Counted from the stretch's first letter, positions 5,170 through 30,484 are shown. The stretch is DNA of 32,000 bases from Alkanindiges illinoisensis DSM 15370 (GCF_000619845.1 NZ_JHUX01000003.1:610064-642063); one strand, 5' to 3'. Notes: generated by a model not told the origin, from the sequence alone. Translations and numbers: made by a program.

Positions 5170-5961
5170 ATGATTTTTGGACATAAACGTAAAACCCCGG
5201 TGCCAGCGCTGATTGTGCCTGGCTTTGATTCTGTAGCCGTGGCGATTAGCCAGGCTGCAACCCTGACTGCCAGTGAACAACGTGAGCAGCAATCATTTAT
5301 TGAGCATGTGCGTGAACAGGCGCTGCATATCGTGTCGCATATGGCTGATACGATTATTGAAGGCAAACTAGAAGAAGGCGAGCTGCCCACTGACCTGCTG
5401 GACGGCCTGATGATCGAGGCACTGGATGGACTGGACGACGACGATAGCGACATTGAAGGCGCATTGGCCGGGTCCATTCAAGATGCATTGTCGTCTTTCG
5501 ACGTGGATGATTCTGTCATCAATGAAATGTTCGGTGATAATGTCACTGCTGCCGATGCTGCGATTGAAGCTGCTGCTGCAACCATTATCGCGAATATGCC
5601 CGATGAAGGTGAACCACTGGATGAATTTGCCCGTGAATTCATCTTCGGTGAGCCAGATGACATTGAGGAGGGGTTTGACTCTATCAGTGGTAAGCGCTTG
5701 ACTAAGGCACAGACTAAAGCCAAAGTCGGGGCGTTCTCGCATAAAAAAGTGGGTGGCCGTAAGGTTGCTTATAAAGGGGTACTGGCCATTCGTAAAGGCA
5801 TCAAAACCATTGTGAACAAGCGACTGCCTGGGCAGAAAATCCGTCAATCTGCTGACCAGAAACAGGCGATTAAAAAAGCCCGCCTGAAAGCACACACGGC
5901 TAATTCCATTCGCCAGCGTGTGAAATCGTTTAAGAAAGGTCGCAAGATGGGTTTGTATTAA
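5170..5961 (+). CDS. Acidic/basic internal-protein-like virion protein (leader - acidic region - basic tail)
   Basis: GGAG lies upstream of the ATG. The protein has a ~20-aa leader ending in GFDSV, a strongly acidic middle (LDGLDDDDSDIEG, EPDDIEEG), a second GFDSI, and then ~90 aa with 29 K/R and one acidic residue (my count). Confidence 0.6.
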   Translation: MIFGHKRKTPVPALIVPGFDSVAVAISQAATLTASEQREQQSFIEHVREQALHIVSHMADTIIEGKLEEGELPTDLLDGLMIEALDGLDDDDSDIEGALAGSIQDALSSFDVDDSVINEMFGDNVTAADAAIEAAAATIIANMPDEGEPLDEFAREFIFGEPDDIEEGFDSISGKRLTKAQTKAKVGAFSHKKVGGRKVAYKGVLAIRKGIKTIVNKRLPGQKIRQSADQKQAIKKARLKAHTANSIRQRVKSFKKGRKMGLY

Positions 5962-6614: not shown

Positions 6615-7148
6615 ATGGCTGGTTTAAACCTTGCGACATTAACCAATAAAGATGCATATATTGAAAAAATCCGTGCCGCACTGGAAACCGCAACCGGGCA
6701 ACAAATCCCGGCGGGTACCGTAGAGGTAGGGAAAGTCAAACGGGTGAGTGGGGTAAGCGCGGCACCTGTTACCTTTGCATTTGCTGGTGGTCAGTCATTG
6801 ACCCTTTATGTACGTGCGACTGCCGATGTATTTAAGGCTGAACTCAATGGCAAGGTCATCGTCCTGTCCGGTGATTTCAGTAACGACTGGAAACAAACCT
6901 TTGACGCTGCTGTGACTGGTGTGGCCAAGCTGGTACGTGATGGCCAAAAGGCGAAACAGGCAGAAAATGCACGTCAAAAAGTTAAAATTCCGCGTGCACC
7001 CAGCCAAAGCGTTACGGCAAAAATCAAGGAAGTGCAAGAACAGGAAGCCCAGCTTGATCAGCGTATCACTGAAAAAACTGCCCAGCGTGACCAGTTAAAA
7101 GAAAAACTGGAACAGGCCCGCGCGCAAATTGCAGCAGTGACCCAGTAA
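6615..7148 (+). CDS. Hypothetical protein; paralogue of the central domain of ORF 18114-20063, with a C-terminal coiled coil
   Basis: Shared blocks with 18114-20063: 'Y[IL]EK', 'V.V.K..KR..V...VT[FY]..A.GQS[LV]T[LI]' and 'QRIT[ED]KTA'. The tail is Q/E/K/A-rich. Confidence 0.6.
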   Translation: MAGLNLATLTNKDAYIEKIRAALETATGQQIPAGTVEVGKVKRVSGVSAAPVTFAFAGGQSLTLYVRATADVFKAELNGKVIVLSGDFSNDWKQTFDAAVTGVAKLVRDGQKAKQAENARQKVKIPRAPSQSVTAKIKEVQEQEAQLDQRITEKTAQRDQLKEKLEQARAQIAAVTQ

Positions 7149-15808: not shown

Positions 15809-15838
15809 GCCTTAAATTGGTGAATTTTGGCAACAAGA

Positions 15839-17461
15839 ATGGCAGTTTCAGATGTTTTAGCAATCTTGCTCGGTGCAGGCTCCGCTGCTTCAGCACCGTC
15901 GCCTATCGTCGGGGCAGCTCAAGAAAGTATGGCGCATATGTATGACGCCGCTGCGCCATTTTCGCTAGGCACCCATCAAACCAAAAATAATAAGAAACGT
16001 ACCCGCAAGGAAATCATGACCAAATGGGAGCAAATGCTTAAGTTTGCCCCTATTGCTGAAAGTATGGGAATCCATAGCACCGCTGCACTGGGTGGTGATG
16101 AGCACACCAGCCAGCAAGTATTCATTAAGCCTGCTGAACGCCTGCAAAAAGCCGACAACCCTGTTTTAAAAGCACAGCTTGCCAAACTTGAAAAACGTAT
16201 CAAGCCGATGGAGCGGCTGATCAATCAGCATATTCTTAAACTGTGTTTTGATGCCTGCGGCTTTGGCGATTCCTATGCCCGTGTATATGGGAAAAAAGGC
16301 ATTGGCGTCGTGGATATGATGTGTAACGAATACACCTATCCACCGCTGGTTTTACCGTTTGAGCAGGGTAGTAAAACGCTGGTCTATCATTTGTTGGACG
16401 CCCGAAACTGGACGAATACCAGTTCAAAATTAGGGGCGCGACAAATGATCCGCATGAAAATGCCGCGGATTCTGCACGTTCCCCAGCATGAAATCATTGA
16501 AGGCGTGCTTGTTGCCAAGATGATGGAAGAGGACGACCCGGACAATTTGCCGCTTTTCCCAGCGCATGTGGGTGGCTCATTTTTAATTGCCATTGAAGAA
16601 ATTTTTGACAATGTGATTCGTGCGCTAGCGGCAATGAATACACAGCAGGTTGCTGATGCAGTCAACCAGATGTTTTTAACCATGAACATGGCCGGTATGC
16701 CACCGGCACAGCGTGAAGCCTACAAGCAAGGGCTTGAAGGCATGTTACGTGAGCATGAACAGTTTGTTAAGAATGCATTAGATGGCGGCGAAGCACTTTA
16801 CACCACGAAATACCACGTATTGCCAACATGGGATGAAAAGCAAATTTTAAACCCGATTGGCGATATCAAGGGCCAGCGTAGTACAGCCATTAATATTGAA
16901 ACTTTTATGATTGACGTACGCTTGCTTATGGGGGGCCTTGGTCTGGACCCGTCCATGGTAGGCTGGGCTGATATGTTATCCGGTGGAATAGGTGATGGTT
17001 CCGCGTCCCTGACGTATTCAAGCCAGGTGATGCGCCGTTCCATGATGATACGGCAGTCCTCAAGCCAAATGGTTAATGACTTGCTTAAAATTGACTGGGG
17101 CTATGCCTATAACGAAGATTTTGACAATGAACTGGATTATCCATGGCAAGTGGTCTTTCATTCTGATCAGACTGCAGCAGCCAATGAAATCCAGACGACC
17201 AAGCAAACCCGCATGAATACATTGCTGATTAAGACGCAGGTCATTACCGCGATTAAAGACGCAGGGCTTAATGAAGAAAATACCGCACTACTGTTAGAGC
17301 GTGACGGGGGGATGGATTACGACGAAGCCCAGAATCTGGCTAAAGATATTACCAGCGCCCGGGAAAAAGCCTTAGAGGATGGCCAAAATCCCAATGGCAA
17401 TCCACAGGATGACAACTTAAATCCTGAACCAGAAAATGACGACGAAGAGGACGGCATTTAA
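15839..17461 (+). CDS. Portal protein
   Basis: ~540 aa. The N-terminal region 'TRKEIMTKWEQMLKFAPIAESMGIHSTAAL' resembles the portal pattern seen in T4 gp20 (TReli..y..l......n.a...i..dai). The C-terminus is highly acidic (PEPENDDEEDGI). The track start is TTG 15827. ATG 15839 is preferred because it restores the 26-30 nt box-to-start spacing seen at the other copies. Confidence 0.65.
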   Translation: MAVSDVLAILLGAGSAASAPSPIVGAAQESMAHMYDAAAPFSLGTHQTKNNKKRTRKEIMTKWEQMLKFAPIAESMGIHSTAALGGDEHTSQQVFIKPAERLQKADNPVLKAQLAKLEKRIKPMERLINQHILKLCFDACGFGDSYARVYGKKGIGVVDMMCNEYTYPPLVLPFEQGSKTLVYHLLDARNWTNTSSKLGARQMIRMKMPRILHVPQHEIIEGVLVAKMMEEDDPDNLPLFPAHVGGSFLIAIEEIFDNVIRALAAMNTQQVADAVNQMFLTMNMAGMPPAQREAYKQGLEGMLREHEQFVKNALDGGEALYTTKYHVLPTWDEKQILNPIGDIKGQRSTAINIETFMIDVRLLMGGLGLDPSMVGWADMLSGGIGDGSASLTYSSQVMRRSMMIRQSSSQMVNDLLKIDWGYAYNEDFDNELDYPWQVVFHSDQTAAANEIQTTKQTRMNTLLIKTQVITAIKDAGLNEENTALLLERDGGMDYDEAQNLAKDITSAREKALEDGQNPNGNPQDDNLNPEPENDDEEDGI

Positions 17462-18039
17462 TGGCTGATCAATATGGGGTTTGGTCTGGCATGCCGATTG
17501 AAGAGGCCATCGGCTACTATGAGTCGTTGTATGCCATTGGTACGCTATCGGCCATTCATTATGGGGTAGAGTTGCGGCCCTTTGATGAAAACGGAAAAAT
17601 CGCCAAAAGCCCAGATGTGACCCTGTTTAATAACTTTTGGTTGCCGTGGCTGGCCACCAGTATTGATTTATCGGTACTGGATGCACAAAGTGATAGTGCC
17701 AAGGTCGGTCACTACCAGTTGAACTATCTCACTGGCAATGGTTCTGGTGAAATTTCCATACCGTTCATTGAAACCCGCGCTGCTGATATTTTAAATAGTG
17801 CCAAAGCCATTAAAAAAATCGTGTTTCCCAAAGATGGTACTCAGGCGGTACCCGGTGATTACCTGATGCTGATGAAAATCTTTATCTATGACAAGCACAG
17901 CCGGTCAACACGGGTTTTTGAGGTTGATCACTTAGTTGCCTTGCAAGCCGGTAGTGTGCCTCTGGATGCCTCTAATGTGAATGGCGTGGCAACAGTCCAG
18001 CTTAACTTCTTAAAGATGTTTCCCATGCTGGTTGATTGA
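17461..18039 (+). CDS. Hypothetical virion protein (192 aa)
   Basis: A TAATG overlap joins it to the portal gene. It looks beta-rich, with a vague resemblance to gp19-type tube-fold proteins. I see no protease motif. Confidence 0.55.
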   Translation: MADQYGVWSGMPIEEAIGYYESLYAIGTLSAIHYGVELRPFDENGKIAKSPDVTLFNNFWLPWLATSIDLSVLDAQSDSAKVGHYQLNYLTGNGSGEISIPFIETRAADILNSAKAIKKIVFPKDGTQAVPGDYLMLMKIFIYDKHSRSTRVFEVDHLVALQAGSVPLDASNVNGVATVQLNFLKMFPMLVD

Positions 18040-18040
18040 C

Positions 18041-18083
18041 TGGAACCTGCCAGAAACCCATCATTTTTAGCCTGACACAATAA
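18041..18083 (+). promoter_or_regulatory. Copy C of the TGGAACC-N24-CACAATAA element
   Basis: TGGAACC 18041-18047 begins 2 nt after the upstream stop. After 24 nt comes CTGACACAATAA 18072-18083, identical to the 12-mer of copy B. ATG 18114 lies 30 nt further on. Confidence 0.5.
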
Positions 18084-18112
18084 GCCCAGTATTAAAAATA
18101 GTGGGCTTTTTT
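18082..18112 (+). terminator. Terminator hairpin overlapping the end of promoter-like copy C
   Basis: AAGCCCA(gta ttaaaaa tag)TGGGCTTtttt: 7-bp outer stem plus an AT inner stem with one mismatch, T-run 18107-18112, directly abutting ATG 18114. Confidence 0.55.
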
Positions 18113-18113
18113 C

Positions 18114-20063
18114 ATGCGCCGGAATATCGATATTTTCACCCAGACTCATGCACCGCATTCCAGCCGGTTTGTGGCAGGTTTTGATTCCATTAACAGCGGG
18201 TCCTGTGCAGTAGGTTTTATTGCTGGCCAATATCGCCGTATCCCGGCGCTTGTGGCTGAAACAGCGACCGATGATGACCAATGGCGAGTTGTTAATCTAA
18301 AAGGCGGTAAGGGCAATGAAGCGCATTTTGATGCGATTGCGGTACTGGGCGCGGTAGATGATCAACAGGCAGCTGATATGACGTTAATGCAGTTTGGCCG
18401 CCTATTTGATTCTGTGGCTATGGATGTGCTGACAACCAATACCAATGGCCTAATGCGCCATTTAGATACCAGCCACTACCACGCTAAACCCAGCACCATT
18501 GCCCCATGGCAACTTAAGGCCATGCAGGACGTGATTTGTGCTGAAAAACCTATGTGGGATGACATCAATCTGGTATCCCATAAAGGCCAAACCGCCAATT
18601 TGCTGCTGGATATGCAACGCCATGATGACCACGATGGGTTGTTATCCCAGTTTGACGGATTGCCAAATTTGCTTGAGCAGCTTGGCGTTGAAGAGCCGGG
18701 CTTTGATGCGCTCATTGTGCAGTATCAATATCTTGAAAAGCTGACCGCACAATTGCATACCGCTATGAAAAATGCGGGCAAGGCTGGTGTGCAAGTGGTG
18801 AATGTCACCGTTAGCAAGCCATTCAAGCGTAACAAAGTGGCGCAAGTTGCGGTGACTTACGATATGGCAGACGGCCAGAGCGTCACGATTCTCTTTCACA
18901 ACCCTGACAGCACACCGTCCAAACTGGCGCCAGCTGATACGCTCATTTCATGGAAAATCCAGATGAATAACCGTGATATTACTGGCGCTATTCAACCGAA
19001 CCAGGGTGAAGGTATTGCCTTACCAGTGCTGGCTGGCCGTATTCTAAAACTGGTCAATCAGAATAGTGACCGGTTTAAGCGCTACCAGGTTAAAAAAACA
19101 GAGCAGGCGCAGGCTTTGGCGGATGCCGAACAGCGTATCACTGATAAAACCGCCCTCGATAAAGCGCTGGACGACGAAATGACTGATTTACAGCAACAGA
19201 TTGATGCAGCCCATGAGCAGGCCAAGCAACAGCAGGAACTGGCTCAGCAAAATAGCGAAGTTCTTAAGGGGCTTATGGCTGATATTGCAGCAACTGCTGA
19301 TCTGGGTGAAGCCACTACCAAAAATTACTTCTTTAAAGAAAAAGAGGTGGATGGCACCAAGTTTCATTTGTCAGTAGACCCATTTGGTGATGGCCTGACG
19401 GTTTGTTTATCAATCATGCCTGCCACTGGCGGCGAGCAGACAGAAGAACAGGCCTTTACGCTAGAACAACTGCAAAACGGTGGTTTTGAGGAAGCTAAGG
19501 CCTATCTAAAAACACTGGATGAAAAGTTTAATCAGGCCGTGGTTGAGGATGATTCGATTCCTGCTGAAGATATTCAGTTTGTGAGAGATATCGAGGCAGG
19601 CACGGTAGACGGTCTGGCCGAAGATAATTTCAAGCGCTTATATGGTATTGCTCAGGAAACCAAAAACAATGGGGATGAGGAAACCGAAGGCGCAGCAGTT
19701 AGTGCTGCAACGGTGATGGCCGAGAAACTTAAACCTGTTGCAACTGAAAAAGGTATCTCGCTTGAGCGCCTAAATACCGCGATTGATGATGAAGATGTAC
19801 TGGAAATCCTAGATTCCATTGAAGCCTTGCAAGCTGCCCTTAATGCAGCACCTGAACCTGAGCCTGAACCAGCTGCTAACCCGGATCAGGAGTTTCTGCA
19901 AAACATCATTGCAGGCACTGTGGACGCCACAACTGTTGATATGGATCACATCATAGAACTGGGCGAGAAGTACCCAGACGATGCAGCATTCAATGCATTG
20001 TATGAGCAGGCTCTCAATGCGATTAACAAGGCTGAGCAAGAAGCCGCCAAGAGTTTGGGTTAA
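18114..20063 (+). CDS. Large acidic coiled-coil protein; candidate packaged accessory protein (DarA-like in size and position, unverified)
   Basis: 649 aa. A GFDSI motif sits 22 aa from the N-terminus, like the leader of 5170-5961. The central domain is paralogous to 6615-7148. It also has a Q/E/A coiled coil, a PEPEPEP linker, and two copies of a [QE]F[VL]..I.AGTVD module. There is no SD, but the start is supported by the box-to-ATG spacing. Confidence 0.6.
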   Translation: MRRNIDIFTQTHAPHSSRFVAGFDSINSGSCAVGFIAGQYRRIPALVAETATDDDQWRVVNLKGGKGNEAHFDAIAVLGAVDDQQAADMTLMQFGRLFDSVAMDVLTTNTNGLMRHLDTSHYHAKPSTIAPWQLKAMQDVICAEKPMWDDINLVSHKGQTANLLLDMQRHDDHDGLLSQFDGLPNLLEQLGVEEPGFDALIVQYQYLEKLTAQLHTAMKNAGKAGVQVVNVTVSKPFKRNKVAQVAVTYDMADGQSVTILFHNPDSTPSKLAPADTLISWKIQMNNRDITGAIQPNQGEGIALPVLAGRILKLVNQNSDRFKRYQVKKTEQAQALADAEQRITDKTALDKALDDEMTDLQQQIDAAHEQAKQQQELAQQNSEVLKGLMADIAATADLGEATTKNYFFKEKEVDGTKFHLSVDPFGDGLTVCLSIMPATGGEQTEEQAFTLEQLQNGGFEEAKAYLKTLDEKFNQAVVEDDSIPAEDIQFVRDIEAGTVDGLAEDNFKRLYGIAQETKNNGDEETEGAAVSAATVMAEKLKPVATEKGISLERLNTAIDDEDVLEILDSIEALQAALNAAPEPEPEPAANPDQEFLQNIIAGTVDATTVDMDHIIELGEKYPDDAAFNALYEQALNAINKAEQEAAKSLG

Positions 20064-20075
20064 GGGGGTAAAACG

Positions 20076-20420
20076 ATGTTGACTGCATTAGAAAAAGCCA
20101 AAGCCCTTAAAGAGTTTAGAGAATTGCGCCTTAAACTGGCTGGTGATGGATTAACCGCGCTGGACAAGGCCAAATCGTTAAAGCGCTTTCGTGAATTGCG
20201 TTTGTTGCTGGGTGGACAGAATCAACCAGAAGCACAGGAACCCGCCAATAATCCGCTGTACCAGTCCATTCTGGAAGGCCGGGAAGTCACACTAGAATTG
20301 CTGGAGCAGGTCAAGGCAGAGGCCGAAAAAGACTTGAACCATCCACAGCTGATTCCCGCTGTTCTTAAACTTAAAGAGCAGGTTGAACCATTACAGGTGC
20401 ATCAGAGTGAGGCGGCTTAA
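20076..20420 (+). CDS. Small helical protein with an internal 24-aa tandem duplication
   Basis: GGGGG lies upstream. LTALEKAKALKEFRELRLKLAG (aa 2-23) and LTALDKAKSLKRFRELRLLLGG (aa 26-47). Its stop abuts the ATG of the next gene. Confidence 0.65.
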   Translation: MLTALEKAKALKEFRELRLKLAGDGLTALDKAKSLKRFRELRLLLGGQNQPEAQEPANNPLYQSILEGREVTLELLEQVKAEAEKDLNHPQLIPAVLKLKEQVEPLQVHQSEAA

Positions 20421-23400
20421 ATGGTGTCGAAAACGGATAAAACCGCCTTAAATCAAATTGACGTCGTTGCAAATCCCATTGCAGCGATTGATGCGATGAT
20501 TGATGCGCTTAAGCACCAGCAGCACGAAAACTACGAGTTTTTAACGGGTGAACCGGTTGCATCCATCCAGTCCGGCCAGATTAAGCCTGATGAGAAGGGT
20601 CATTACATCAAGGCGGCTGTTAACTGGTTTAGGGAGTGGATGGACAAAAATAGCCATGGGCAGGAATTTGAAAATGTGCAGCTAGGAACAATCATTATTG
20701 CGCCTAGTGGCATTAAATCAGCCATGAGTCATAAACCCCACCCAATTGATGTTCAGGCGCTACCGGCCTTGCCTTTGATTATTGAAAAAGCTGTTGTTCT
20801 CAGTAGAACAATGGATGATATGGGCAAACCATTAGAAAATATTGTGGTCGCGGCACCCATCGAAATTGACGCCAAAAAATATTATATGGTTGTTCGTTTA
20901 AGACGGCACACTGAAGATAAAAACGATAGACCCCGCTTTTATACGCAAGCGGTTACTATTGCAGAGGACATAAAAAAAGGACACATCCCTTCAGACCAAG
21001 TGACTGGGCAAAATAAATTGCTTACTCAAAATGGAGGACGTGTCCGTTTATTAAATGTACTGTATAGCGCTCTCAGTGTCAATAATCCAGCGACCAGCAT
21101 TGTTACAGGCCGTACAAACACTGTAAAAACCCCAAAAGGCACCAAACTTGATACGGTTTTTGCACTGGTTGAAGCTGACAATGTAATTGCATCACACGAT
21201 AGCACTGGCGGGACTAATCCTAAATTTCCGCAAGAATTGCAGCCGCGTGACCGTAGCCGCGAAGCCAGCCAGACATGGGTGAAAAAAACAGCGGCCAATC
21301 TGGATCCTGATAGTCTGGGTAAAACCAGCCGTGCAGACACCGGTGCGCCGATTGTTGGTGATGACTTGATTGTTGAATCCGGGAACGGTCGCACCATGGC
21401 GATTCAATTAGCGTACGCACGTGGTACCGCAGAGGAATACCGCGCTTGGCTGGTTGATGAGGCAGAATACTTTGGATTTAAGCCTGAACAGGTTGAAGCC
21501 TTTAAGCAGCCTGTACTGGTGCGTATCCGTAAAACTGAGATTGACCGTGCCGCATTTGCAGTAGAAGCGAACCAGGATGATAAGCTGTCTTTGAGTGCCA
21601 CGGAACGCGCCAAGGCCGATGCTCGCCGTATTGATGACAATATGGCGATGCTATTTAACCCAAGCGAAGATGGGGATTTACTGGCGGCCAGTAACCAGAA
21701 ATTTATACAGGCTTTTTTACAGTCCATTGGTGATACCGAAGCTGCTCAGTATATTGGAACCGATGGCAAGCCAACGCAGGCACTAGTTTTACGCATTAAA
21801 GCAGCGGTATTTAGCAAGGCTTATAAGGATGACCGTCTTTTAGAGATGGTGGCAGACCAGACCAAGCCAGACTTAAAAAATATGCTGAATGCATTAAGTG
21901 TTGCGGCGCCCAAGTTTATTGAGGCCCAAGCCATTAGCCGGTTACAAACCGAAGATTTATCCAGTCAAATTGTTGATGGTATTGAAAGTGCCACTGACCA
22001 AAAGGTTATTGATGCGATTATTGCCGCTGCAAACGTGGTGATGACCGCAAAAAATGACAACCATGACGTGACCGAGTTTGTTAAGCAGCAAGGCCTGTTT
22101 GGTGATTTACCGGATGGTGTGGCAGAGCTGGCCGTATTCCTATCCAAAAATGCCAGCAGTGCCAAAAAGATGAGTCTGTTATTCAAAGCTATGGCCAGCT
22201 TTTTGGAAAAACAGGCAATTGACCAGAGTAACAATAGCCTGTTTGGTGATCCTGAGCCGCTGAGCATGCGAGAGGTCATTCAGCATGCTGTTGGTGTACT
22301 TGAGCAAGAATATGGCGATAAAGCCAATTTAAGCATGTTTGATGATTTAGGCTTTCTAGAGCCTAAGTTATTTGACCAGATTTTTAAGTCCTACGCCCGC
22401 ACTGGGGAATGGACACCAACAAAATATCTGGAGCAAATGGATGCGTTGCGTCGTATTTTCTTTGCAAACGGCTGGGGACGTGAAAGACGTACTAACGGCT
22501 TCATGATCAAGCCTTGTGGTGAACGCAAAGTACGTCTTATTAAATATGCCGATGATGATAAATTTTTTGTCAGCATCGTTGATTTAGATGAAAAATTAAT
22601 CACTGAAATTGTAGGTTGTGATAATAAGGCCATTCCTGAAATCATTGCTGAAATTAATAAATATCTTAATGAAGATCAGCAACTATCATTAGAAAAGTCT
22701 GGCTTTGATTCGGTTGATGGCAATGATCAGATTGCTATGGTGCCTAAGGTTGATGCTAGCAATACATGGATGAATGGGCAAATCATTCCATGGTCAGAAA
22801 ATCCTGAGACTGATTTTGCGCATTCCATGAAATTGCCATCTTCCGGTCAGCTTGGTGATAAGGTTTGTTTTCATGTCTGGGCAAATGAAAGTAAAGAGTC
22901 AAGGGTGAGAATAGATGCATTTATTGCAGATATTAAGTTTAAGACCAGTAAAGTATGGTATGGACTGGCCATGCGCATTGCTGATACGCGATTTGCGACA
23001 CTGATTTACTTACCTAGTGGGACTTTTGATATTTTAACCAGTCATGAAAGTGTAGACGGTTATGATGCCTTACTCACCATGGAAGAGATATGTCGGCATA
23101 ACTGTTTGCGTACTGATATTGATAAGCAAGCCCATGAAGCCGCCACGTCACCTTACAATGATTTGCCAGAGCCGACTGAAGCACAAAAAATTTCAGGGGA
23201 TTATGTGAAGGGCAAGCTATCAATTGCGGGTGTAGATATAGCGATTGAAAATCCGGCTGGTTCTACACGCTCAGGCGTTGACGCCAGTGGAAAGGCTTGG
23301 CAAACCACGATGAAGCATCACTATGGCTACATTGAAAATACCATGGGTGCCGATGGTGATGAGCTGGATGTATTTGTTAAAACTGGTTTGAATGAATATA

Positions 23401-24005
23401 CCGGCATTGTGTATGTCATCCGCCAGCTTGATCCAGAAAGCCTAGATTTTGATGAACACAAGATCATTATTGGCGCGTCTACATTAGAAGAAGCCCAGCA
23501 AATTTATTTGTCTAATTATGAATCGGGCTGGCAGGGGATGGGCAGTATTGAAACGCTATCCATTGAAGATTTTAGGAACAGGCTGGGTAAGACCTGGACG
23601 CAGTTTGATTCGATTGGCCAGCACGTTGAGCCAATCACTGTTCTGAATCAGCTTATTGGCATCTTGCAGGCCAAAAAAATCACTGACCAGCAGCAGTTAA
23701 TGGAACTGCGCGAGGAAATTCGCACCAATGAGCAGACCGCCCGTTATTTGATGGGTGGCCGTAAGGGATTGTGGGGCCGCACAACCAATGCGGACAATAA
23801 ACGCAGTGCTGAATTGTCAAATTTACGCCTGAAATACCAGCTGGCACTGAATCATTTTATTGCCCTGTATTCCATTGACAAGCGGGAAGCCCGTACCTTT
23901 AATTTACGCCATGGCGTCAATTCTTTTGATTCCATCGAAAATGACCAGATACACCCAGTATTTCATGCGATTTATGGGCATGGAAACCACTGGAACAGCG
24001 CATAA
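20421..24005 (+). CDS. Polyvalent protein: unknown N-terminal domain + ParB/DdrB-like domain + helical region + pyrophosphatase-signature domain
   Basis: 1,194 aa. ParB-superfamily motifs are 'ELQPRDRSR' and 'VESGNGRTMAIQLAY' (GxxR box). 'DGDELDV' at 23352-23372 fits the family-I PPase signature D-[SGDN]-D-[PE]-[LIVMF]-D-[LIVMGAC] as I recall it. Three FDS[IV] motifs separate the segments. Confidence 0.7.
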   Translation: MVSKTDKTALNQIDVVANPIAAIDAMIDALKHQQHENYEFLTGEPVASIQSGQIKPDEKGHYIKAAVNWFREWMDKNSHGQEFENVQLGTIIIAPSGIKSAMSHKPHPIDVQALPALPLIIEKAVVLSRTMDDMGKPLENIVVAAPIEIDAKKYYMVVRLRRHTEDKNDRPRFYTQAVTIAEDIKKGHIPSDQVTGQNKLLTQNGGRVRLLNVLYSALSVNNPATSIVTGRTNTVKTPKGTKLDTVFALVEADNVIASHDSTGGTNPKFPQELQPRDRSREASQTWVKKTAANLDPDSLGKTSRADTGAPIVGDDLIVESGNGRTMAIQLAYARGTAEEYRAWLVDEAEYFGFKPEQVEAFKQPVLVRIRKTEIDRAAFAVEANQDDKLSLSATERAKADARRIDDNMAMLFNPSEDGDLLAASNQKFIQAFLQSIGDTEAAQYIGTDGKPTQALVLRIKAAVFSKAYKDDRLLEMVADQTKPDLKNMLNALSVAAPKFIEAQAISRLQTEDLSSQIVDGIESATDQKVIDAIIAAANVVMTAKNDNHDVTEFVKQQGLFGDLPDGVAELAVFLSKNASSAKKMSLLFKAMASFLEKQAIDQSNNSLFGDPEPLSMREVIQHAVGVLEQEYGDKANLSMFDDLGFLEPKLFDQIFKSYARTGEWTPTKYLEQMDALRRIFFANGWGRERRTNGFMIKPCGERKVRLIKYADDDKFFVSIVDLDEKLITEIVGCDNKAIPEIIAEINKYLNEDQQLSLEKSGFDSVDGNDQIAMVPKVDASNTWMNGQIIPWSENPETDFAHSMKLPSSGQLGDKVCFHVWANESKESRVRIDAFIADIKFKTSKVWYGLAMRIADTRFATLIYLPSGTFDILTSHESVDGYDALLTMEEICRHNCLRTDIDKQAHEAATSPYNDLPEPTEAQKISGDYVKGKLSIAGVDIAIENPAGSTRSGVDASGKAWQTTMKHHYGYIENTMGADGDELDVFVKTGLNEYTGIVYVIRQLDPESLDFDEHKIIIGASTLEEAQQIYLSNYESGWQGMGSIETLSIEDFRNRLGKTWTQFDSIGQHVEPITVLNQLIGILQAKKITDQQQLMELREEIRTNEQTARYLMGGRKGLWGRTTNADNKRSAELSNLRLKYQLALNHFIALYSIDKREARTFNLRHGVNSFDSIENDQIHPVFHAIYGHGNHWNSA
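21141..21640 (+). other. ParB-superfamily (DdrB-type) domain within 20421-24005
   Basis: 'FALVEADNVIASHD...FPQELQPRDRSREASQ...GAPIVGDDLIVESGNGRTMAIQLAY...PVLVRIRK...RAAFAVEANQDDKLSLSATERAKADA'. The boundaries are approximate. Confidence 0.55.
23163..23570 (+). other. Inorganic-pyrophosphatase-like domain within 20421-24005
   Basis: 'LPEPTEAQKISGDYVKGKLSIAGVDIAIENPAGSTRSG...HYGYIENTMGADGDELDVFV'. The sequence block resembles one that I recall in phage/ICE polyvalent proteins. The boundaries are approximate. Confidence 0.5.
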
Positions 24006-24067
24006 AAGCACCAATTACCAAGCCTTAACATAGGTCAATCTAAAAAAATACCTATGTTGAGGTCTGC

Positions 24068-27000
24068 ATGTCTGCGGTGGTTAATTTAAGTCAATTTGTG
24101 GTTACACCCTTAACTGTAATGACTGCTATTGATGCAATGATAGCGGTCTTACAGCAAGCGAATGGTCAGCATATCCCGCTGTATCAGTTTAGCGAAAAGA
24201 TAACGCCTGCTGCCCGCCAGCGTGCCAACAATGAGGCAGTTGCATTACTGCGGGCTGTCCAAAATGACGATGTAAAGCAACTTACACCAGAACAAAAACT
24301 CATTTTATCCCGCTATACCGGCACGGGTGGCAACCTGATTGGCGAAGATGGCTTAAAGGGCAGTGCGTACGAGTACTACACACCAATGCCAGTGGCACAA
24401 GCCATGTGGGACCTATTAAAAGAACAGGGCTTTGCTGGTGGGAACGTATTAGACCCCAGCTCAGGCACTGGTATTTTTGCTGGTTGCGCCCCTGCCGATA
24501 TCCTCATGCACAGTGTTGAACTCTCTGATATATCCGGCAATATCAATAAACTGGTCAATGATAGTGATAAGCATGCAACCACAGTGGCCCCGTTTGAACA
24601 GGTCGCGGCCAGCACTGATGATGAAATTTTTGATGCAGTCATTACCAATGTGCCGTTTGGCACCAATGCCGACCGTGGCAAAAACAAGAACCTGGACAAT
24701 AAATATCAGCGTGACACGCTGGAAGAATATTTTATTAAGCGGTCGCTGGATAAATTGCGTCCCAATGGTTTAGCCGCCTTTATCGTTCCTACCAAAATTT
24801 TAGACAACAGCAGCTTTAAAAAGTTTCGTCAGCTGATTTTATTGCGTGCCGATCTAGTCGGCGCTTACCGCCTGCCCAATAAAGTGTTTGACGCCACTGG
24901 AGCAGATGTCACGACCGATATCATTATTCTTAAAAAATTTAACCAGGATGTCAGCGAGAAAATCACCAACCTGTATGAAAACGGTGGACTGCAAACCCTG
25001 CAAGCCGCACGGGTGCTAGATACCGATATTGTGGCCGGGCATTACTTTAAAACCTATGGCAAGTCTTACGTGCTGGGTGAAACCGTCAAGGGCAAAGGCC
25101 GTTTTGGTGAAGTGGAACGGGTAGTTAATGATGATTCATTGGCCAATATCCTAAAACTGGTGAAGCGTTTTCCTGAATCACGTATTGACTATAACTTGCT
25201 GGAAGTTACCCCCGAATTGACCGAAATTACTTTTAATGACGGTGATATTCGCCGTATCGATGGCGCCACATTCCAGATGAAAAACGGCGAGTGGCAACAG
25301 GTGATTGAACGCTTTAACGTGGATGAATCCTTATTTGCAACGCCATACGCTTTATTGTCTGGCAAAGGGGATTATCCAAAGCTGGTTGAATATGTTGCTT
25401 ATTGCGCGGCCAATGCCAAGCGTCCGCCAGAATGGCTATCTATCTTTACACAAGAGGTCGAAAAGAACGCCGCTACATTTGGCTTCTGGTTATGTGTGTT
25501 GTCAGTACTGGATGCCCTAAAAACTGATAATGGCACATTTCCCTATGCAGAGCGCTATTCGGCACTAACCGCGCAAATGGTCGGTTATGCAGATGCCTAC
25601 CTTAAAAAACGCTACAAACCCAAAAATCAGGATTATAAACGCTATCTGCACACCATCAGCATTGCCTTTGATAGCAACATGCCTGATGGTATTTCACGAT
25701 TCTGGCGCGGTGATACCAGTCAACTGGCAGCCGTACAGCCACTGCATACCCAAGCTGCTTATGAAAATGCGGTGTACCGAGGTATTGCAGAAAACTGGCA
25801 AGTCGATGTAGCTGTCATTCAGCAAAGCAATCCTGATTTTGACCCAATGACTGATGACAATTACTGTATCAATCAGGATGGCAGCAAAGTCACGTTAAAG
25901 CGCGACTATTATGTTGGCAACTATCAGCAGTTTTTAACCCGGATTAACAGCCAGATTGACGCAGCAACGGATCCTGTCATTAAGGAAAAACTGATTCGGC
26001 AGAAACTGGCCGCTGATGCCATGATTCAGGCAATCGATGTTTGTAAGCTCAACTATGACCTAATGGCCAGCACCATACCGATTGAAATCAAGTATCGCTA
26101 CTTTTCAGAATTTATTGATGACAAGGTACTGATTGATGCAGACCATCGGCTAGTTTTGGATGAAAAACCGGATTCTGTTATTGATCTGGTCAAATACCGT
26201 TTAAGCGGCAGTAAGGCACTGGAAACCGGCAAGATGGATGAGGGCAATAAGGCGCTGCGCTACTTTATGCTCAACCGGATTTTTAACTCCATCAACAACA
26301 ACCAGCGTCTTTATGTGAAAACTGAGGACAACATCAACAAGGATACCAAAGCCAAGCTGCTTAAAATCCTGACCGATTATTACAATACCTTGAATGTCAG
26401 TTTTGATGCCTGGTTGAAATCCAATGATGAGTTCATGGCCCAGTTGGATCAGCAATTTAATGCCCCTGAAAACAAGGTTTTTCCGGTGCAACTGGATGAT
26501 TCACCATTAACGATTGATGGCTTTAATCCCAAAAGAGAAGGTTTTATAGCATTAAACGGCTACCAGAATGAGGAAATTCGCCGGCTGTCACGCCATTTTG
26601 CGGGTATGTGTGGTTTTGACGTGGGGCTGGGTAAAACCCTAACCGCGCTGGCTGCCATGCAGAATATGCATAATATTGGCATTAAAACCCGTACGTTTGT
26701 AGTGGTTCCCAACCATACCATCAGTAAGTGGTTTAACGATGTCAAAATGGCTTATGACTACGTAGACGATGTGCTGGTGATTGGCAGTAATCAGGGTAAA
26801 CAGGACGCCGTAGACTCCAAGTTTAATGCAGCAGATTTTGCAGCACTGACCAAGCCGGAAGGGAAGCATTATCGAAAAATCCTGATGACCGTGGATGCAT
26901 TCAATATGATTCCGCTGCGTCAGGCGACCATTGAAACCCATTTTTACCAGACTGAAGGTATTGCCACCGACCGCAAGCAGGACCGCGAAAAGCAGGACGG

Positions 27001-30000
27001 TGATTTAAGTAACCGCATCAAGAAAATCAACAAGTATGAAAGCAAGTTGCCCTATTTTGAGGATATGGGCGTTGATTCACTGGTATTTGATGAAGCCCAG
27101 CTATTCAAGAATGGCAAGGCTGGCGGCGGCCAATATGACCGTATCAAAGGCCTGTCATTGCTGGCCGAGAGTGCTTTATCGGCGCGTGCAATCAGCGCGG
27201 CCATTAAATCCTGGTATATCCGTGGCCGTAACGGTGAATTGAATGATGGCGTAGTCTTGCTGACTGCAACGCCATTTACTAACTCGCCGGTTGAGATTCT
27301 AACCATGCTGTCACTGGCAGTCGGTGATAAGGAAGCCATGCGCGAACTGGCGGGTACTTCCATTGCCAGCGTTGATGATTTCTTAAGTACCTTTGCCAAT
27401 ATTGACCAGATTGAGCAGGAAAATATTGTCGGTGATCTGGTATCAGTTGATACTTTTACGGGCTTTAAAAACGTGCAGTTATTGAAGGATGGCATTCACA
27501 AGATTGCTAATATCCAGACCGCCCGGGAGCGTGGCCTTAAAATTCCTGATGAAGAAAATCATACCGTGGTCATTGACCTGGTGGATGACGACAAGGCAAC
27601 CCTAAACCAGATGAAAGGGTTTTATGCACTGGCCAAGGAAATGATTAACGGCGGTGGTGTGATTGCCGATAAAGATACCTTTGAGGCCTATGAAGCCTAT
27701 AAGGAAATGCTTGGTGAAACGGATGAGCTACTGGCTCACCCGTTCAACCTGATTGCCCGCATGTCTGATGTGATCATGGCCGGTAGTGAAATGGGCCTCA
27801 TGCGTATTGTACCCGTTGATTTTGCCCCTGATCAGCTGGAAGCCGCGCGCAAATTGGCTGACCAGTTTAATGCCAAGAAAATCAGCATTAAGACAACCCG
27901 CCGTTTTCCGGGCGTTGATAGCGAACTAATGACAGTCAAAATGATACAGGACAATCAAGGCGAGCTAATGCCACAGTTTACTATAGGCTGCCGTGTTGAT
28001 CTGGATGATCATAATTCGCGGTTAATCCTAAATGTGGATGATGCTGGCGTCGTCGCGCAGCTGATGGAAATGATTGATAAGGCAGGCCTACAGGTCCAGC
28101 CCAAGCTATCAGCTAAAGTTTCTGCCATGGTTGAAAACTATAAGGTTGAGCAGAGTACGCCAAAGCATCAGGGCCATGCCAAACAGCTTATTTTCTGCGA
28201 CAACCTGGCGATGCAGCATGTAATCAAGCGGGCATTGGTTGCTTACTGTGGGGTGAAATCCAGCCAGATTGCCATTATCAATGCGCAAACTCTACCAGAT
28301 GGCAGCAAGGGCAGTCCTGATACAGAGCACATGCAGGAAGTGCAGGACAAGTTTGCCAGCAATGAGTTTACAACCGTCATTGCCAATAAAAAGGCTGAAA
28401 CCGGTATTGATTTGCAGATTGGTACACAGGCCATCCACCACTTAACAACGGGCTGGACACCAGACAGCTTACAGCAGCGTAATGGCCGTGGCGTACGTCA
28501 GGGCAATAAGCAGTCCAGCGTGGCAATTTACCATTACAATGCCAATGGCACCTTTGATGAGTATAAGCAGCGCCTGATTGCTGGCAAGGCTGACTGGATT
28601 GACCAGTTGATGCAAAAGGATTCTGTTGTATCTGGAACCCTGAATGTGAGCCAGGAACTCAGTAAACAGGACTATGAGGACCTGATTAATGCTGATAGCC
28701 CTGAACAAATTGCTGCACTATTGCAGGCAAAATCTATTCGGGAACAGGCCGAGCGTGCTGCACTGGTTGCCTCCAGAACCCGCTTGCTATATGACAACAT
28801 GATCAAGGCCAAGAAACGCCCTAAACCCAGCATTGAAGGGCAAGTACGTCAGATTATGGAGGTCGATGCCAAACGGCTAGGGGAACTGATCAAGAAGCGC
28901 GACAAGGCGGCCAAGCCTGAGGTTATTCAGCGTTACACCGACCAGATCAACCAGATTGCCCAGCGCTATGATGGCTGGTTCGATGGTGAGCTGACCAGTG
29001 ATATGGTGATTAAGGGCATTGAGCGAAAACGGCAATATAACCGTAGCCCAAGTTTTAGTGAATATGATATTTACCGTGAAATGCGGACTGGAAGCCATGA
29101 AATGTCACGCTGGATCCAGACCAATGCCGACACCCTGACCAATGATGTATTTAACCGTGCCCGTAGTGTGGTGAGCACAGCAGATAACATGATTCGTGCC
29201 ACTGAAGAATCATTCTTGAATTATCAGGATAATGGTTTTAGTGAGGCTGATAAACAGGCCATTTTAACCGGAGAGGCCGTTTTAGATGATTTGGGCGTGC
29301 TTTGGTATGCAGGCGAGTACGTTAAGGCCATTAAAGAAAATGGCAAAACCGTTTATGGCTATGTGAAGATTGCTGAACTTAGTGATTATGGCTTTAAATT
29401 TGGTTTTATCGGTAAGGAAATCGGTAGAACTGATACCTGCCAGAAACTAAGCCCGGATGATAAGGCCGCTGCCATTGAATATATGGTGGCCGAGGATATG
29501 GCCGAGTGTAACACCAAAGAAATTTTTGATATCAGTGTTGCTAAGCCATTTTACGCCAGTGTTTTTCCAGAAATTTACACCATTTTGGCGGAACGTCTGG
29601 CCGGTGCGCTTCAAGAATGGAATGAGCGGACTACCCAGTATTTTGCCCGCAATCTGGTGCACCGTGCGACTAAGCGGCGCTATTGGGCTGAAGAGTTTTT
29701 ACCAGAGCTAAGGTATGATAATCCCGATATTGTTAAATCTTATAACCTGGTATTTGATATTGAGGCATTTGAAGTTAATCCGCTCAATCGCAGGCCTATG
29801 GCGGTAATCCGTAATAAGAACCTAAGGCTTTATCAAAACATCCCAATAACCCATGCCTCAGATTCTGAATTTTTTGAAAATGAACTGCTGCCTTATCTGG
29901 AAGGTGAGGCTATAGAAGTAAAAATGGATGTAGACACAGCATTTAATTTATTGAAAAAACTGCTAGGAACATCACGCCTGTTTGATATGGCATTAACCCG

Positions 30001-30484
30001 GGCCGGTTTTACCACGGCTGAATTTCAACAGTTGTATGTTGACGGGATTAGTAAGGCTGATATTCCGCAATATGTTAAAAAAGCAATTGATCAGGAAATT
30101 GGGCACGTCATCAATAACCTTGATGAAGTGGTTGGCTGGTTTATGGTGAGCGAGGGTTATAGACATATCCGGCAACGGATTAAAATCCTGCCCGAACCAG
30201 GTGCACCTGAAGCAGCGGCGGCTGATCTGATGGAGCAGGCCAAGCGGGTAGCGATTAAAAATACCAAGGATGTACCCGTCATTGGCTTAAAATCAGTGGT
30301 GATCGGCAGGGATGGTAATAAGCTGTATGAAAACAAGGAATCATTAAAGGCTACGGTGGACTATGCCTACTGGGCAAAACGTCCAAGTATGTGGATTATT
30401 GACCTGGAATCGTTTGCCAAGCTGATTCAACAGCCGTGGTACGATTCAACCCAGATTGAAATTGTTGAGGCAAAATACAGATGA
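24068..30484 (+). CDS. Giant N6-adenine DNA methyltransferase + SF2 (SNF2/DEAH-like) helicase fusion, P1 DarB-like
   Basis: 2,138 aa; GAGG lies upstream. MTase motif I is VLDPSSGTG (24446-24472) and motif IV is ITNVPFG (24641-24661). The helicase Walker A is GLGKT (26624-26638), with DEAQ (27089-27100), LLTATP (~27257-27274) and motif VI QQRNGRGVRQG (28472-28504). Confidence 0.8.
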   Translation: MSAVVNLSQFVVTPLTVMTAIDAMIAVLQQANGQHIPLYQFSEKITPAARQRANNEAVALLRAVQNDDVKQLTPEQKLILSRYTGTGGNLIGEDGLKGSAYEYYTPMPVAQAMWDLLKEQGFAGGNVLDPSSGTGIFAGCAPADILMHSVELSDISGNINKLVNDSDKHATTVAPFEQVAASTDDEIFDAVITNVPFGTNADRGKNKNLDNKYQRDTLEEYFIKRSLDKLRPNGLAAFIVPTKILDNSSFKKFRQLILLRADLVGAYRLPNKVFDATGADVTTDIIILKKFNQDVSEKITNLYENGGLQTLQAARVLDTDIVAGHYFKTYGKSYVLGETVKGKGRFGEVERVVNDDSLANILKLVKRFPESRIDYNLLEVTPELTEITFNDGDIRRIDGATFQMKNGEWQQVIERFNVDESLFATPYALLSGKGDYPKLVEYVAYCAANAKRPPEWLSIFTQEVEKNAATFGFWLCVLSVLDALKTDNGTFPYAERYSALTAQMVGYADAYLKKRYKPKNQDYKRYLHTISIAFDSNMPDGISRFWRGDTSQLAAVQPLHTQAAYENAVYRGIAENWQVDVAVIQQSNPDFDPMTDDNYCINQDGSKVTLKRDYYVGNYQQFLTRINSQIDAATDPVIKEKLIRQKLAADAMIQAIDVCKLNYDLMASTIPIEIKYRYFSEFIDDKVLIDADHRLVLDEKPDSVIDLVKYRLSGSKALETGKMDEGNKALRYFMLNRIFNSINNNQRLYVKTEDNINKDTKAKLLKILTDYYNTLNVSFDAWLKSNDEFMAQLDQQFNAPENKVFPVQLDDSPLTIDGFNPKREGFIALNGYQNEEIRRLSRHFAGMCGFDVGLGKTLTALAAMQNMHNIGIKTRTFVVVPNHTISKWFNDVKMAYDYVDDVLVIGSNQGKQDAVDSKFNAADFAALTKPEGKHYRKILMTVDAFNMIPLRQATIETHFYQTEGIATDRKQDREKQDGDLSNRIKKINKYESKLPYFEDMGVDSLVFDEAQLFKNGKAGGGQYDRIKGLSLLAESALSARAISAAIKSWYIRGRNGELNDGVVLLTATPFTNSPVEILTMLSLAVGDKEAMRELAGTSIASVDDFLSTFANIDQIEQENIVGDLVSVDTFTGFKNVQLLKDGIHKIANIQTARERGLKIPDEENHTVVIDLVDDDKATLNQMKGFYALAKEMINGGGVIADKDTFEAYEAYKEMLGETDELLAHPFNLIARMSDVIMAGSEMGLMRIVPVDFAPDQLEAARKLADQFNAKKISIKTTRRFPGVDSELMTVKMIQDNQGELMPQFTIGCRVDLDDHNSRLILNVDDAGVVAQLMEMIDKAGLQVQPKLSAKVSAMVENYKVEQSTPKHQGHAKQLIFCDNLAMQHVIKRALVAYCGVKSSQIAIINAQTLPDGSKGSPDTEHMQEVQDKFASNEFTTVIANKKAETGIDLQIGTQAIHHLTTGWTPDSLQQRNGRGVRQGNKQSSVAIYHYNANGTFDEYKQRLIAGKADWIDQLMQKDSVVSGTLNVSQELSKQDYEDLINADSPEQIAALLQAKSIREQAERAALVASRTRLLYDNMIKAKKRPKPSIEGQVRQIMEVDAKRLGELIKKRDKAAKPEVIQRYTDQINQIAQRYDGWFDGELTSDMVIKGIERKRQYNRSPSFSEYDIYREMRTGSHEMSRWIQTNADTLTNDVFNRARSVVSTADNMIRATEESFLNYQDNGFSEADKQAILTGEAVLDDLGVLWYAGEYVKAIKENGKTVYGYVKIAELSDYGFKFGFIGKEIGRTDTCQKLSPDDKAAAIEYMVAEDMAECNTKEIFDISVAKPFYASVFPEIYTILAERLAGALQEWNERTTQYFARNLVHRATKRRYWAEEFLPELRYDNPDIVKSYNLVFDIEAFEVNPLNRRPMAVIRNKNLRLYQNIPITHASDSEFFENELLPYLEGEAIEVKMDVDTAFNLLKKLLGTSRLFDMALTRAGFTTAEFQQLYVDGISKADIPQYVKKAIDQEIGHVINNLDEVVGWFMVSEGYRHIRQRIKILPEPGAPEAAAADLMEQAKRVAIKNTKDVPVIGLKSVVIGRDGNKLYENKESLKATVDYAYWAKRPSMWIIDLESFAKLIQQPWYDSTQIEIVEAKYR
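24305..24940 (+). other. SAM-dependent N6-adenine methyltransferase domain
   Basis: 'YYTPMPVAQAMWDLL...VLDPSSGTGIFA...DAVITNVPFG...NGLAAFIVP'. The order of motif I then motif IV, with the NxPF catalytic variant, is typical of amino-MTases. The boundaries are approximate. Confidence 0.7.
26552..28600 (+). other. SF2 helicase core (two RecA-like lobes separated by a ~280-aa insert)
   Basis: N-lobe ~26552-27337 (GLGKT, DEAQ, TATP). C-lobe ~28181-28600 (KQLIFCDN..., TGIDLQ, QQRNGRGVRQG). Confidence 0.7.

Follow-up and report, generated by a model that had tools for sequence, protein, structure and literature searches.

A probable DdrB-type component of a P1-like Dar anti-restriction system in a prophage of Alkanindiges illinoisensis

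INTRODUCTION

The Dar proteins of phage P1 enter the capsid sequentially, following Hdf/DarA; they leave it together with the DNA, which they protect from type I restriction-modification (PMC12810830). One of them, DdrB, is present in P1 virions, where its peptide coverage reached 59.5%, and is listed as aiding the addition of DarB to the capsid (PMC9024508). Iyer et al. (2017) defined DdrB-ParB, InPase and LPD3 as domains of 'polyvalent proteins', and a metallopeptidase in the C-terminus of P1 DdrB was predicted to cut such proteins into units (PMC5512222). In this study, we analyzed a gene at positions 20421–24005 of a 32,000-nucleotide (nt) stretch of Alkanindiges illinoisensis DSM 15370 (GCF_000619845.1, NZ_JHUX01000003.1:610064-642063; hereafter, the window), whose product of 1194 amino acids (aa) carries all three domains. 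An initial annotation, made from the sequence alone, had described this product as a polyvalent phage protein with a ParB-like and a pyrophosphatase-like segment, and both the Pfam matches and the agreement with the 2017 survey bear this out. In our view, the gene product is likely the DdrB-type component of a P1-like Dar system, carried by a temperate P1-like myovirus integrated in A. illinoisensis.

RESULTS

The protein shares its core with P1 DdrB

The following features define the gene and its core:

20421–24005, plus strand: DdrB-like polyvalent protein gene (ATG start, 1194 aa, 133 kDa)
21135–21533, plus strand: ddrB-ParB domain (aa 239–371; Pfam PF18763)
21534–22343, plus strand: continuation of the DdrB core (aa 372–641), with an invariant EANQDDK (aa 382–388), ending in SMFD↓D (aa 638–642; arrows here and below mark predicted or, for the P1 capsid protein, mapped cuts)

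When the open reading frame (ORF) was re-derived with its ATG start, the 1194-aa product was confirmed as real. It is the second-longest ORF within the window, and its ATG immediately follows the TAA stop codon of an upstream 114-aa ORF, so that the two abut. The NCBI record, 100% identical, is named 'LPD3 domain-containing protein [Alkanindiges illinoisensis]'. All peptides quoted in the initial annotation were present in the translation at the relative positions given, namely ELQPRDRSR (aa 272–280), VESGNGRTMAIQLAY (aa 318–332), PVLVRIRK (aa 364–371), FAVEANQDDKLSLSATERAKADA (aa 379–401), IAIENPAGSTRSG (aa 940–952) and HYGYIENTMGADGDELDVFV (aa 967–986), the last containing DGDELDV (aa 978–984). 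Because the Pfam scores lie far over the cut-offs and homologues carry the motif residues without variation, these motifs are not chance occurrences.

We compared the protein with P1 DdrB and found that aa 230–630 align with aa 27–430 of the P1 protein (42% identity over 405 aa, E = 2e-91). The Pfam family ddrB-ParB (PF18763) was matched with 120.4 bits against a cut-off of 27.6, covering profile positions 2–121 of 121, and was also matched by all 13 diverse homologues, including P1 DdrB; by these scores, membership in this family is certain. Ten residues, Q274, P275, R276, D277, R278, E319, S320, G321, N322 and R324, were invariant in the 13 homologues; they include the whole of QPRDR (aa 274–278), and the GNGR box occupies aa 321–324. 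An active-site arginine in the GxxR box and a conserved tyrosine in an inserted helix have been described as hallmarks of the family (Iyer et al. 2017, PMC5512222). Two tyrosines, Y332 and Y340, were invariant in both of our alignments (31 and 13 homologues), and are placed in the family-specific inserted helix by position only. In the alignment of 31 homologues from the Moraxellaceae, the family that includes the genus Alkanindiges, the core (aa 230–641) was nearly invariant and the flanks were modular. Judging from these alignments, the core and the N-terminal 430 aa of P1 DdrB are orthologues.

No similarity to P1 DdrB was detected past aa 641. The zincin-like metallopeptidase region of the P1 C-terminus was not found in the window protein, and no peptidase family scored over the Pfam threshold. 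P1 DdrB (YP_006491, 995 aa) resembles the window protein in its ddrB-ParB domain and helical region, and in a hydrophobic-acidic↓Ser-Val motif at the end of the shared core. It differs in that it lacks LPD3 and has the ParB domain at its very start, and in that its C-terminal ~550 aa hold a predicted metallopeptidase ('possible metallopeptidase'), whereas the window protein has at this place two small modules (M1 and M2), InPase and a C-terminal module.

Dar-type genes surround the gene in a P1-like order

The genes of the neighborhood that bear on this comparison are as follows:

6615–7148, plus strand: Hdf-like protein (177 aa; phrog_1620 'Hdf-like antirestriction', 8.4e-35)
15827–17461, plus strand: portal protein (phrog_1497, 1.7e-166; tblastn with P1 Prt, 1e-30)
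18114–20063, plus strand: DarA-like internal head protein (649 aa; Pfam DarA_N, 4.7e-28; BLASTP with P1 DarA, 1e-15; FDS at aa 23 and 98)
20076–20420, plus strand: 114-aa ORF at the position of P1 ddrA, with no detectable DdrA similarity
24068–30484, plus strand: DarB-like N6-adenine methyltransferase and SNF2 helicase (2138 aa; Pfam N6_Mtase, SNF2-rel_dom and Helicase_C)

The Dar set found in the window consists of DarA, DarB, DdrB and an Hdf-like protein. When the DarB-like protein was compared with P1 DarB by BLASTP, its methyltransferase part showed 37% identity (9e-60) and its SNF2 helicase part 26% (5e-68). The DarB-like gene starts 62 nt downstream of the ddrB-like gene, whereas 358 nt, including a single small ORF, separate the latter from the DarA-like gene upstream. 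The gene order is therefore portal, DarA-like, small ORF, DdrB-like and DarB-like, which reproduces the P1 order hdf-darA-ddrA-ddrB for darA, the small ORF and ddrB. Both here and in P1, the gene follows darA and a small ORF; homologues of DarB, Hdf, the portal protein and PmgG accompany it. In P1, however, darB occupies a separate locus beside the portal gene, whereas here it stands directly behind the ddrB-like gene, with the portal gene just upstream, so that the large Dar genes form one block.

The window also encodes tail sheath, tube, baseplate and PmgG-like proteins, and the 10 kb upstream of it contain terminase, Thoeris and tail genes. An origin in a conjugative element was rejected, since the window in its entirety represents a structural module of a myovirus. 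A megablast search with positions 18000–26000 against 50,697 phage records gave no match; relatives were detectable at the protein level only. As a separate observation, aa 49–107 of the 114-aa ORF weakly match the C-terminal end of DarA-like phrog_8883 (6e-12), and this ORF may be a partial duplicate of the DarA C-terminus or a part split off from it.

Judging by sequence similarity, then, what the initial annotation missed is the identity of the protein as DdrB within a P1-type Dar anti-restriction cassette. This identity places the protein in a setting that is already known: inside the capsid, from which it is ejected along with the DNA, and, in P1, with a role that DarB incorporation requires.

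Accessory modules flank the core

We examined the regions on both sides of the core, where the following features were found:

20610–20939, plus strand: LPD3 domain (aa ~64–173; Pfam PF18798)
22422–22700, plus strand: module M1, small alpha+beta (aa ~668–760; predicted local distance difference test (pLDDT) up to 95 in AlphaFold2 (AF2))
22770–23018, plus strand: module M2, small beta-barrel (aa ~784–866; 5–6 strands in AF2, pLDDT 70–87)
23112–23594, plus strand: InPase module (aa ~898–1058; signature HYGYIENTMGADGDELDV, aa 967–984)
23613–23930, plus strand: C-terminal module (aa ~1065–1170), present only in the three closest homologues

The first ~240 aa, previously considered unassigned, hold an LPD3 domain (PF18798, aa 64–167, 47–50 bits against a cut-off of 27). 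A model of aa 1–229 built with AF2 (pLDDT 79, predicted template modeling score 0.75) matched LPD3 domains of other viral polyvalent proteins in a Foldseek search of BFVD (E = 4e-10 to 5e-4). Against the PDB, nothing was found under E = 0.03, and the resemblance to NTF2-like folds was weak. The ~350-aa helical middle of the initial annotation likewise resolved into the core continuation (aa 372–641) followed by small globular modules. AF2 predicted two small domains separated by a disordered linker within aa 642–919, and a Foldseek search of this region against the PDB gave nothing under E = 0.04. M1 was detected by phmmer in few homologues (P0002, P0025, P0091, P0004 and others), and a PDB search with it gave no significant match. 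M2 weakly resembles chromo/Tudor/SH3-like barrels (best E = 0.04).

The combination of domains is not surprising, because it is widespread and already annotated. Among the 120 best hits, 77, mostly from Acinetobacter, share the architecture of LPD3, ddrB-ParB and InPase, and ~20 have ddrB-ParB and InPase; other architectures add MuF-C, DarA_N, methylase or further domains. In two Acinetobacter homologues (P0019 and P0023), LPD3 follows the core (aa ~530–730) and is not N-terminal. Interchangeable accessory modules therefore flank the core, with LPD3 on the N-terminal side and two small domains, InPase and a short C-terminal module behind it, and they replace the metallopeptidase-bearing C-terminal half of P1 DdrB.

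The closest sequenced phage protein, gp29 (483 aa) of Acinetobacter phage vB_AbaM_ABMM1 (ABMM1), shows 66% identity over aa 210–643. ABMM1 has the same order of portal, small ORF, DarA (gp28) and DdrB, but its gp29 is a bare DdrB core that lacks LPD3, M1/M2 and InPase, and no DarB-like gene follows it. The proteins of the 2017 survey are comparable in their late or virion gene setting, predicted packaging and injection, and shuffled domain order, and all three Pfam domains were defined there. With its three Pfam domains, two or three further modules and a gene in a myovirus structural region, the window protein is polyvalent in the same sense. It is a further member of a bioinformatically described family.

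The InPase module resembles an enzyme

The Pfam family InPase (PF18823) matched aa 920–1054 with 158 bits against a cut-off of 26.8, covering profile positions 1–133 of 135. The classical pyrophosphatase family (PF00719) matched only aa 963–999, with 20.7 bits, under its cut-off of 23.5. With aa 896–1066 as the query, a full HMMER scan retrieved 11,121 cluster representatives at E <= 1e-3, of which 9,321 reached E <= 1e-10. Most of the representatives sit inside proteins of 1,000–5,800 aa and are still ~50% identical to the query. We then computed conservation over 143 InPase representatives. At least 95% of these conserved E943, N944, P945, S948, R950, W960, H967, Y968, G969, D978, D983 and F985, as well as Q1002, D1011, E1012, H1013, K1014, Y1029, N1032, Y1033 and W1037; D980 was conserved in at least 80%. 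Beyond the Pfam boundary lies an N-terminal extension, AHxAATSPxNxLPxPTxxQK (aa 904–923; also located to aa 898–920, window positions 23112–23180), in which A907, S910, P911, N913, P918 and Q922, together with Y928, reached the same level of at least 95% in the 143 diverse proteins. This extension has no counterpart in classical pyrophosphatases.

The DGDELDV heptad had been recognized as a family I pyrophosphatase signature, the PROSITE pattern of which is D-[SGDN]-D-[PE]-[LIVMF]-D-[LIVMGAC], and it does align with the metal-binding Asp triad of Escherichia coli Ppa, where the corresponding heptad is DGDPVDV. In a profile comparison, hhalign paired HHYGYIENTMGADGDELDVFV with 21 residues of E. 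coli Ppa (E = 1.8e-5, probability 78%), and a hidden Markov model (HMM) built from the 143 sequences reproduced the alignment (hmmsearch, 2.2e-6). Because these two alignments agree, Y968, D978, D980 and D983 are taken to correspond to Ppa Y55, D65, D67 and D70 (mature numbering). The active-site residues of E. coli Ppa are E20, K29, E31, R43, Y55, D65, D67, D70, D97, D102, K104, Y141 and K142. FDEHK was paired with the D102/K104 element of a pyrophosphatase in the PDB in a single weak HMM alignment, and E943 in IAIENP resembles Ppa E20 in VIEIP by inspection only; the other active-site residues found no aligned partner. When the whole InPase module was compared with E. coli Ppa (hmmalign and hmmsearch with the 143-sequence HMM), just the signature of 21–27 residues was aligned, and its N-terminal side remained without alignment. 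The module looks like an enzyme, because catalytic-type acidic residues are conserved across >9,000 clusters; from this conservation we infer that it would be an active metal-dependent phosphoanhydride hydrolase, with inorganic pyrophosphate or a nucleotide-derived molecule as candidate substrates.

InPase domains have been described as phage-specific, as lacking a beta-hairpin of classical pyrophosphatases and as sometimes fused to portals, and either a nucleotide-like substrate or the clearance of inorganic pyrophosphate (PPi) has been proposed for them (PMC5512222). A family I pyrophosphatase is a free hexameric enzyme, whereas InPase is a module of giant virion proteins. The sole strong sequence match in the PDB was the Pa193 portal (9B41, 1e-43). 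In this portal (Pa193/E217 gp19), the C-terminal aa 636–762 are an InPase domain that lies inside the capsid, as a fusion to the portal and not to a DdrB core. Since residues 529–765 of 9B41 lack density (PMC11456595), this domain type has no experimental structure. In agreement with the initial annotation, which knew of no experimental characterization, we found no biochemical or other experimental work on the InPase domain type in the literature searched.

Two other readings of the whole protein start from this module. According to the first, which the initial annotation suggested, the protein is a counter-defense nucleotide hydrolase: InPase, perhaps together with the ParB-like module binding nucleoside triphosphates (NTPs), would destroy the signals of the cyclic-oligonucleotide-based antiphage signaling system (CBASS), Thoeris or Pycsar, or deplete or alter NTP pools, and anti-restriction would be secondary. 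The conserved acidic residues argue for an enzyme, delivery together with the DNA would suit early counter-defense, and Iyer et al. (2017) noted relatives beside NUDIX, GNAT and TmrB genes, which suggested a nucleotide-like substrate to them; the reported loss of the beta-hairpin would also alter the substrate pocket (PMC5512222). However, neither PADLOC nor Pfam searches connected the protein with known anti-CBASS or anti-Thoeris enzymes, the genomic partners are the anti-restriction proteins DarA and DarB, and an enzyme supplied in capsid-limited, stoichiometric amounts would have to outrun signal production. We therefore regard this reading as unlikely.

According to the second, InPase is a plain inorganic pyrophosphatase that would pull forward transcription, replication or nucleotidyl transfer on the incoming DNA, which Iyer et al. 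offered as their alternative (PMC5512222). The signature and FDEHK alignments described above fit this proposal, and InPase is also fused to Pbunavirus portals, always on the side of DNA entry and exit. However, hosts possess abundant and essential Ppa, so that the benefit is unclear; PF00719 stayed below threshold, the residues N-terminal of the signature did not align, and the conserved AATSPxNxLPxPT has no classical counterpart. This proposal, too, appears improbable as an account of the protein.

FDS[IV] motifs in the linkers suggest cutting by a prohead protease

Three copies of an FDS[IV] motif were found behind the core, where they are predicted prohead-protease sites:

22704–22712, plus strand: FDS motif 1 (aa 762–764, SGFD↓SVD)
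23604–23612, plus strand: FDS motif 2 (aa 1062–1064, TQFD↓SIG), directly past the InPase module
23925–23933, plus strand: FDS motif 3 (aa 1169–1171, NSFD↓SIE), 24 aa from the C-terminus

Two further genes of the window carry the motif in addition to the DarA-like gene:

203–1975, plus strand: major capsid protein (590 aa from the ATG at 203; FDS at aa 38, 56 and 117)
5170–5961: 263-aa protein (phrog_1053), after the sheath gene (FDS at aa 19 and 169)

To evaluate the frequency of this motif, we compared the observed count in the 25 proteins of the window with that of shuffled sequences. Ten occurrences were observed against 0.21 expected, and the maximum in 2000 shuffles was 3. All 10 lie in four proteins, namely the N-terminal region of the capsid protein, the DarA-like protein, the 263-aa protein and the DdrB-like protein, and the motif was absent from 13 proteins encoded upstream of the window (tail, terminase and defense). 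In phage ABMM1, the capsid protein, gp12 and DarA have FDS at the corresponding places. Within the window protein, the linker that holds the first copy (aa 762–782) had an AF2 pLDDT below 50, and at aa 640, where the protein has FDD, nearly all homologues have SMFDS. A count over the 120 homologues gave 313 FDS at module junctions, where 26 were expected, although these homologues are related and the counts are not independent events. FDS sits ~80 aa before QPRDR and ~366 aa after it, and in most homologues ~83 aa after DGDE; M2 is flanked by FDS in distant homologues as well. Whole modules plus their FDS linkers have moved around an invariant core, as seen for LPD3 in P0019 and P0023.

The processing of P1 proteins offers a reference for these sites. 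The P1 capsid protein gp23 is cut between E120 and S121, as mapped by Edman degradation, leaving SVAAEM (PMC9024508), and an N-terminal portion of ~9 kDa is removed from P1 DarA by the prohead protease. In a three-way alignment, the P1 cut sequence AMLE↓SVAAEM coincided with AGFD↓SISNLQ of the window capsid protein, which is its third FDS. P1 DdrB itself contains GLFE↓SVS (aa 440–443) precisely at the end of the shared core. From these positions, we infer that a hydrophobic residue followed by D or E, the cut, S and then I or V would constitute the prohead-protease site of this phage group. Because FDS lies in the linkers and in the capsid and DarA N-termini, and one capsid copy stands at the P1 cut, the DdrB-like protein is probably cut into separate modules by this protease. 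The cutting device proposed in the 2017 survey was a metallopeptidase domain (PMC5512222); the window protein lacks this domain and instead has FDS[IV] linkers that match the capsid maturation site. This interpretation of the linkers is the only new element of our analysis.

In the procapsid, then, the prohead protease would cut after FD in the inter-module linkers, giving predicted pieces of ~70, 14, 33, 12 and 3 kDa, so that from then on the ParB-like core would act apart from the InPase module, each as an effector of its own. An extended version of this proposal, a 'cargo train', assigns a task to each piece: FD↓S[IV] would be used both for capsid maturation and for the cutting of polyvalent internal proteins, the core would act on the ejected DNA as a clamp dependent on NTP or cytidine triphosphate (CTP), protecting it in cis from translocating type I enzymes, and the InPase piece would remove PPi or a signaling nucleotide. 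The core does keep the motif pattern of the three ParB nucleotide-binding boxes (QPR, GxxRxxA and E-x-N-Q). We nonetheless consider the full scheme quite unlikely; if it holds, any module between two FDS linkers would be an injectable payload.

Two side observations concern the additional motif-bearing proteins. For the capsid gene, an ORF can be read from GTG 71 (71–1975); the start is most likely ATG 203, with AAAGGTGA before it, and public assemblies record only the 590-aa product. The ABMM1 homologue of the 263-aa protein has FDS at aa 17 and 167, and the 263-aa protein is a candidate processed head protein (scaffold or protease) and not a tail protein.

The proposed relationship of the core to ParB

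The initial annotation described a ParB-type NTPase/nuclease fold. The part of this description that stands is the Pfam ddrB-ParB membership; comparisons with actual ParB proteins gave nothing. An HMM of 13 ddrB-ParB domains gave no ParB match in the PDB, and a Pfam search of these domains at E <= 10 gave no ParBc match. The hhalign comparisons with P1 ParB and with five plasmid ParB N-domains stayed at a probability of <1%, with shallow profiles (effective number of sequences, 2.5). Since four comparisons with ParB were negative, the assignment to the ParB superfamily rests on Pfam and Iyer et al. The five plasmid ParB N-domains, when aligned, show P-x-QPR…GERRxRA…ENLxRxDL. The window protein has QPR (aa 274–276), GNGRTMA (aa 321–327) and EANQ (aa 382–385) in the same order, with a longer second spacing. 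Such motifs in ParB have been recognized as CTP-binding boxes since 2019.

These boxes bear on a third alternative, according to which the core would be a metal-dependent nuclease that nicks or degrades host DNA, or DNA bound by restriction complexes, after injection, with the other modules as accessories. The invariance of R324 and QPRDR fits this idea, as does the classification of the domain among 'novel ParB-like DNases' with a conserved Arg in the active-site pocket (PMC5512222), but we hold it to be very unlikely, given that the same motifs in ParB are known as CTP-binding boxes, that such a nuclease would be packaged beside the phage's own DNA, and that the P1 ddrB phenotype is a loss of DarB incorporation and not a nuclease phenotype (PMC9024508).

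DISCUSSION

The orthology of the core and the order of the neighboring genes point to a DdrB-type component of a Dar system. By analogy with P1, the DdrB-like protein would be made late, would enter the procapsid in a DarA/Hdf-dependent manner and would help to load DarB. It would then be ejected into the host with the DNA, where the Dar proteins would guard this DNA against type I restriction.

Several points weigh against this interpretation or its parts. Head packaging and the role in DarB loading are known from P1 only. The small ORFs at the ddrA and ulx positions have no similarity to P1 DdrA or Ulx; when the neighboring small ORFs were searched with these two proteins and with P1 Hdf, no alignments were obtained. 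Neither the HMM nor the profile-profile comparisons detected similarity of the core to canonical ParB, and the alignment of InPase with classical pyrophosphatases is limited to the signature. As for the predicted cutting, searches of the window and of the preceding 10 kb did not identify a prohead protease gene. By tblastn, P1 Pro matched neither the window nor ABMM1, and neither a 192-aa ORF after the portal gene nor the FDS-bearing 263-aa ORF had a PDB or Pfam match. The relatedness of the 120 homologues, noted above, lowers the weight of their FDS count. Moreover, P1 DdrB is reportedly processed to ~76 kDa (PMC5512222), a size that one cut at E441 fails to explain.

In addition, the same prophage carries a complete Thoeris pair ~6.5–8 kb upstream of window position 1 (L007:2243-3657), between terminase and tail-fiber genes, with PADLOC values of 1.6e-66 for the ThsB TIR protein and 1.8e-117 for the ThsA Macro protein. 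The prophage thus carries an injected anti-restriction set as well as a defense system for its lysogen.

Our findings do not overturn current views. They extend the P1 Dar anti-restriction system, known chiefly from enterobacterial P1-like phages, to prophages of the Moraxellaceae, and present DdrB as a conserved core onto which varied payload modules are grafted. InPase is very abundant, with >9,000 sequence clusters that are mostly giant virion proteins, and aa 898–1063 represent a small, well-bounded version that is a convenient start for biochemistry. If the FDS linker motif is confirmed, it would allow the mature fragments that phages of this lineage inject to be predicted by a simple rule, and would offer a handle for engineering the phage-mediated delivery of proteins into Acinetobacter.

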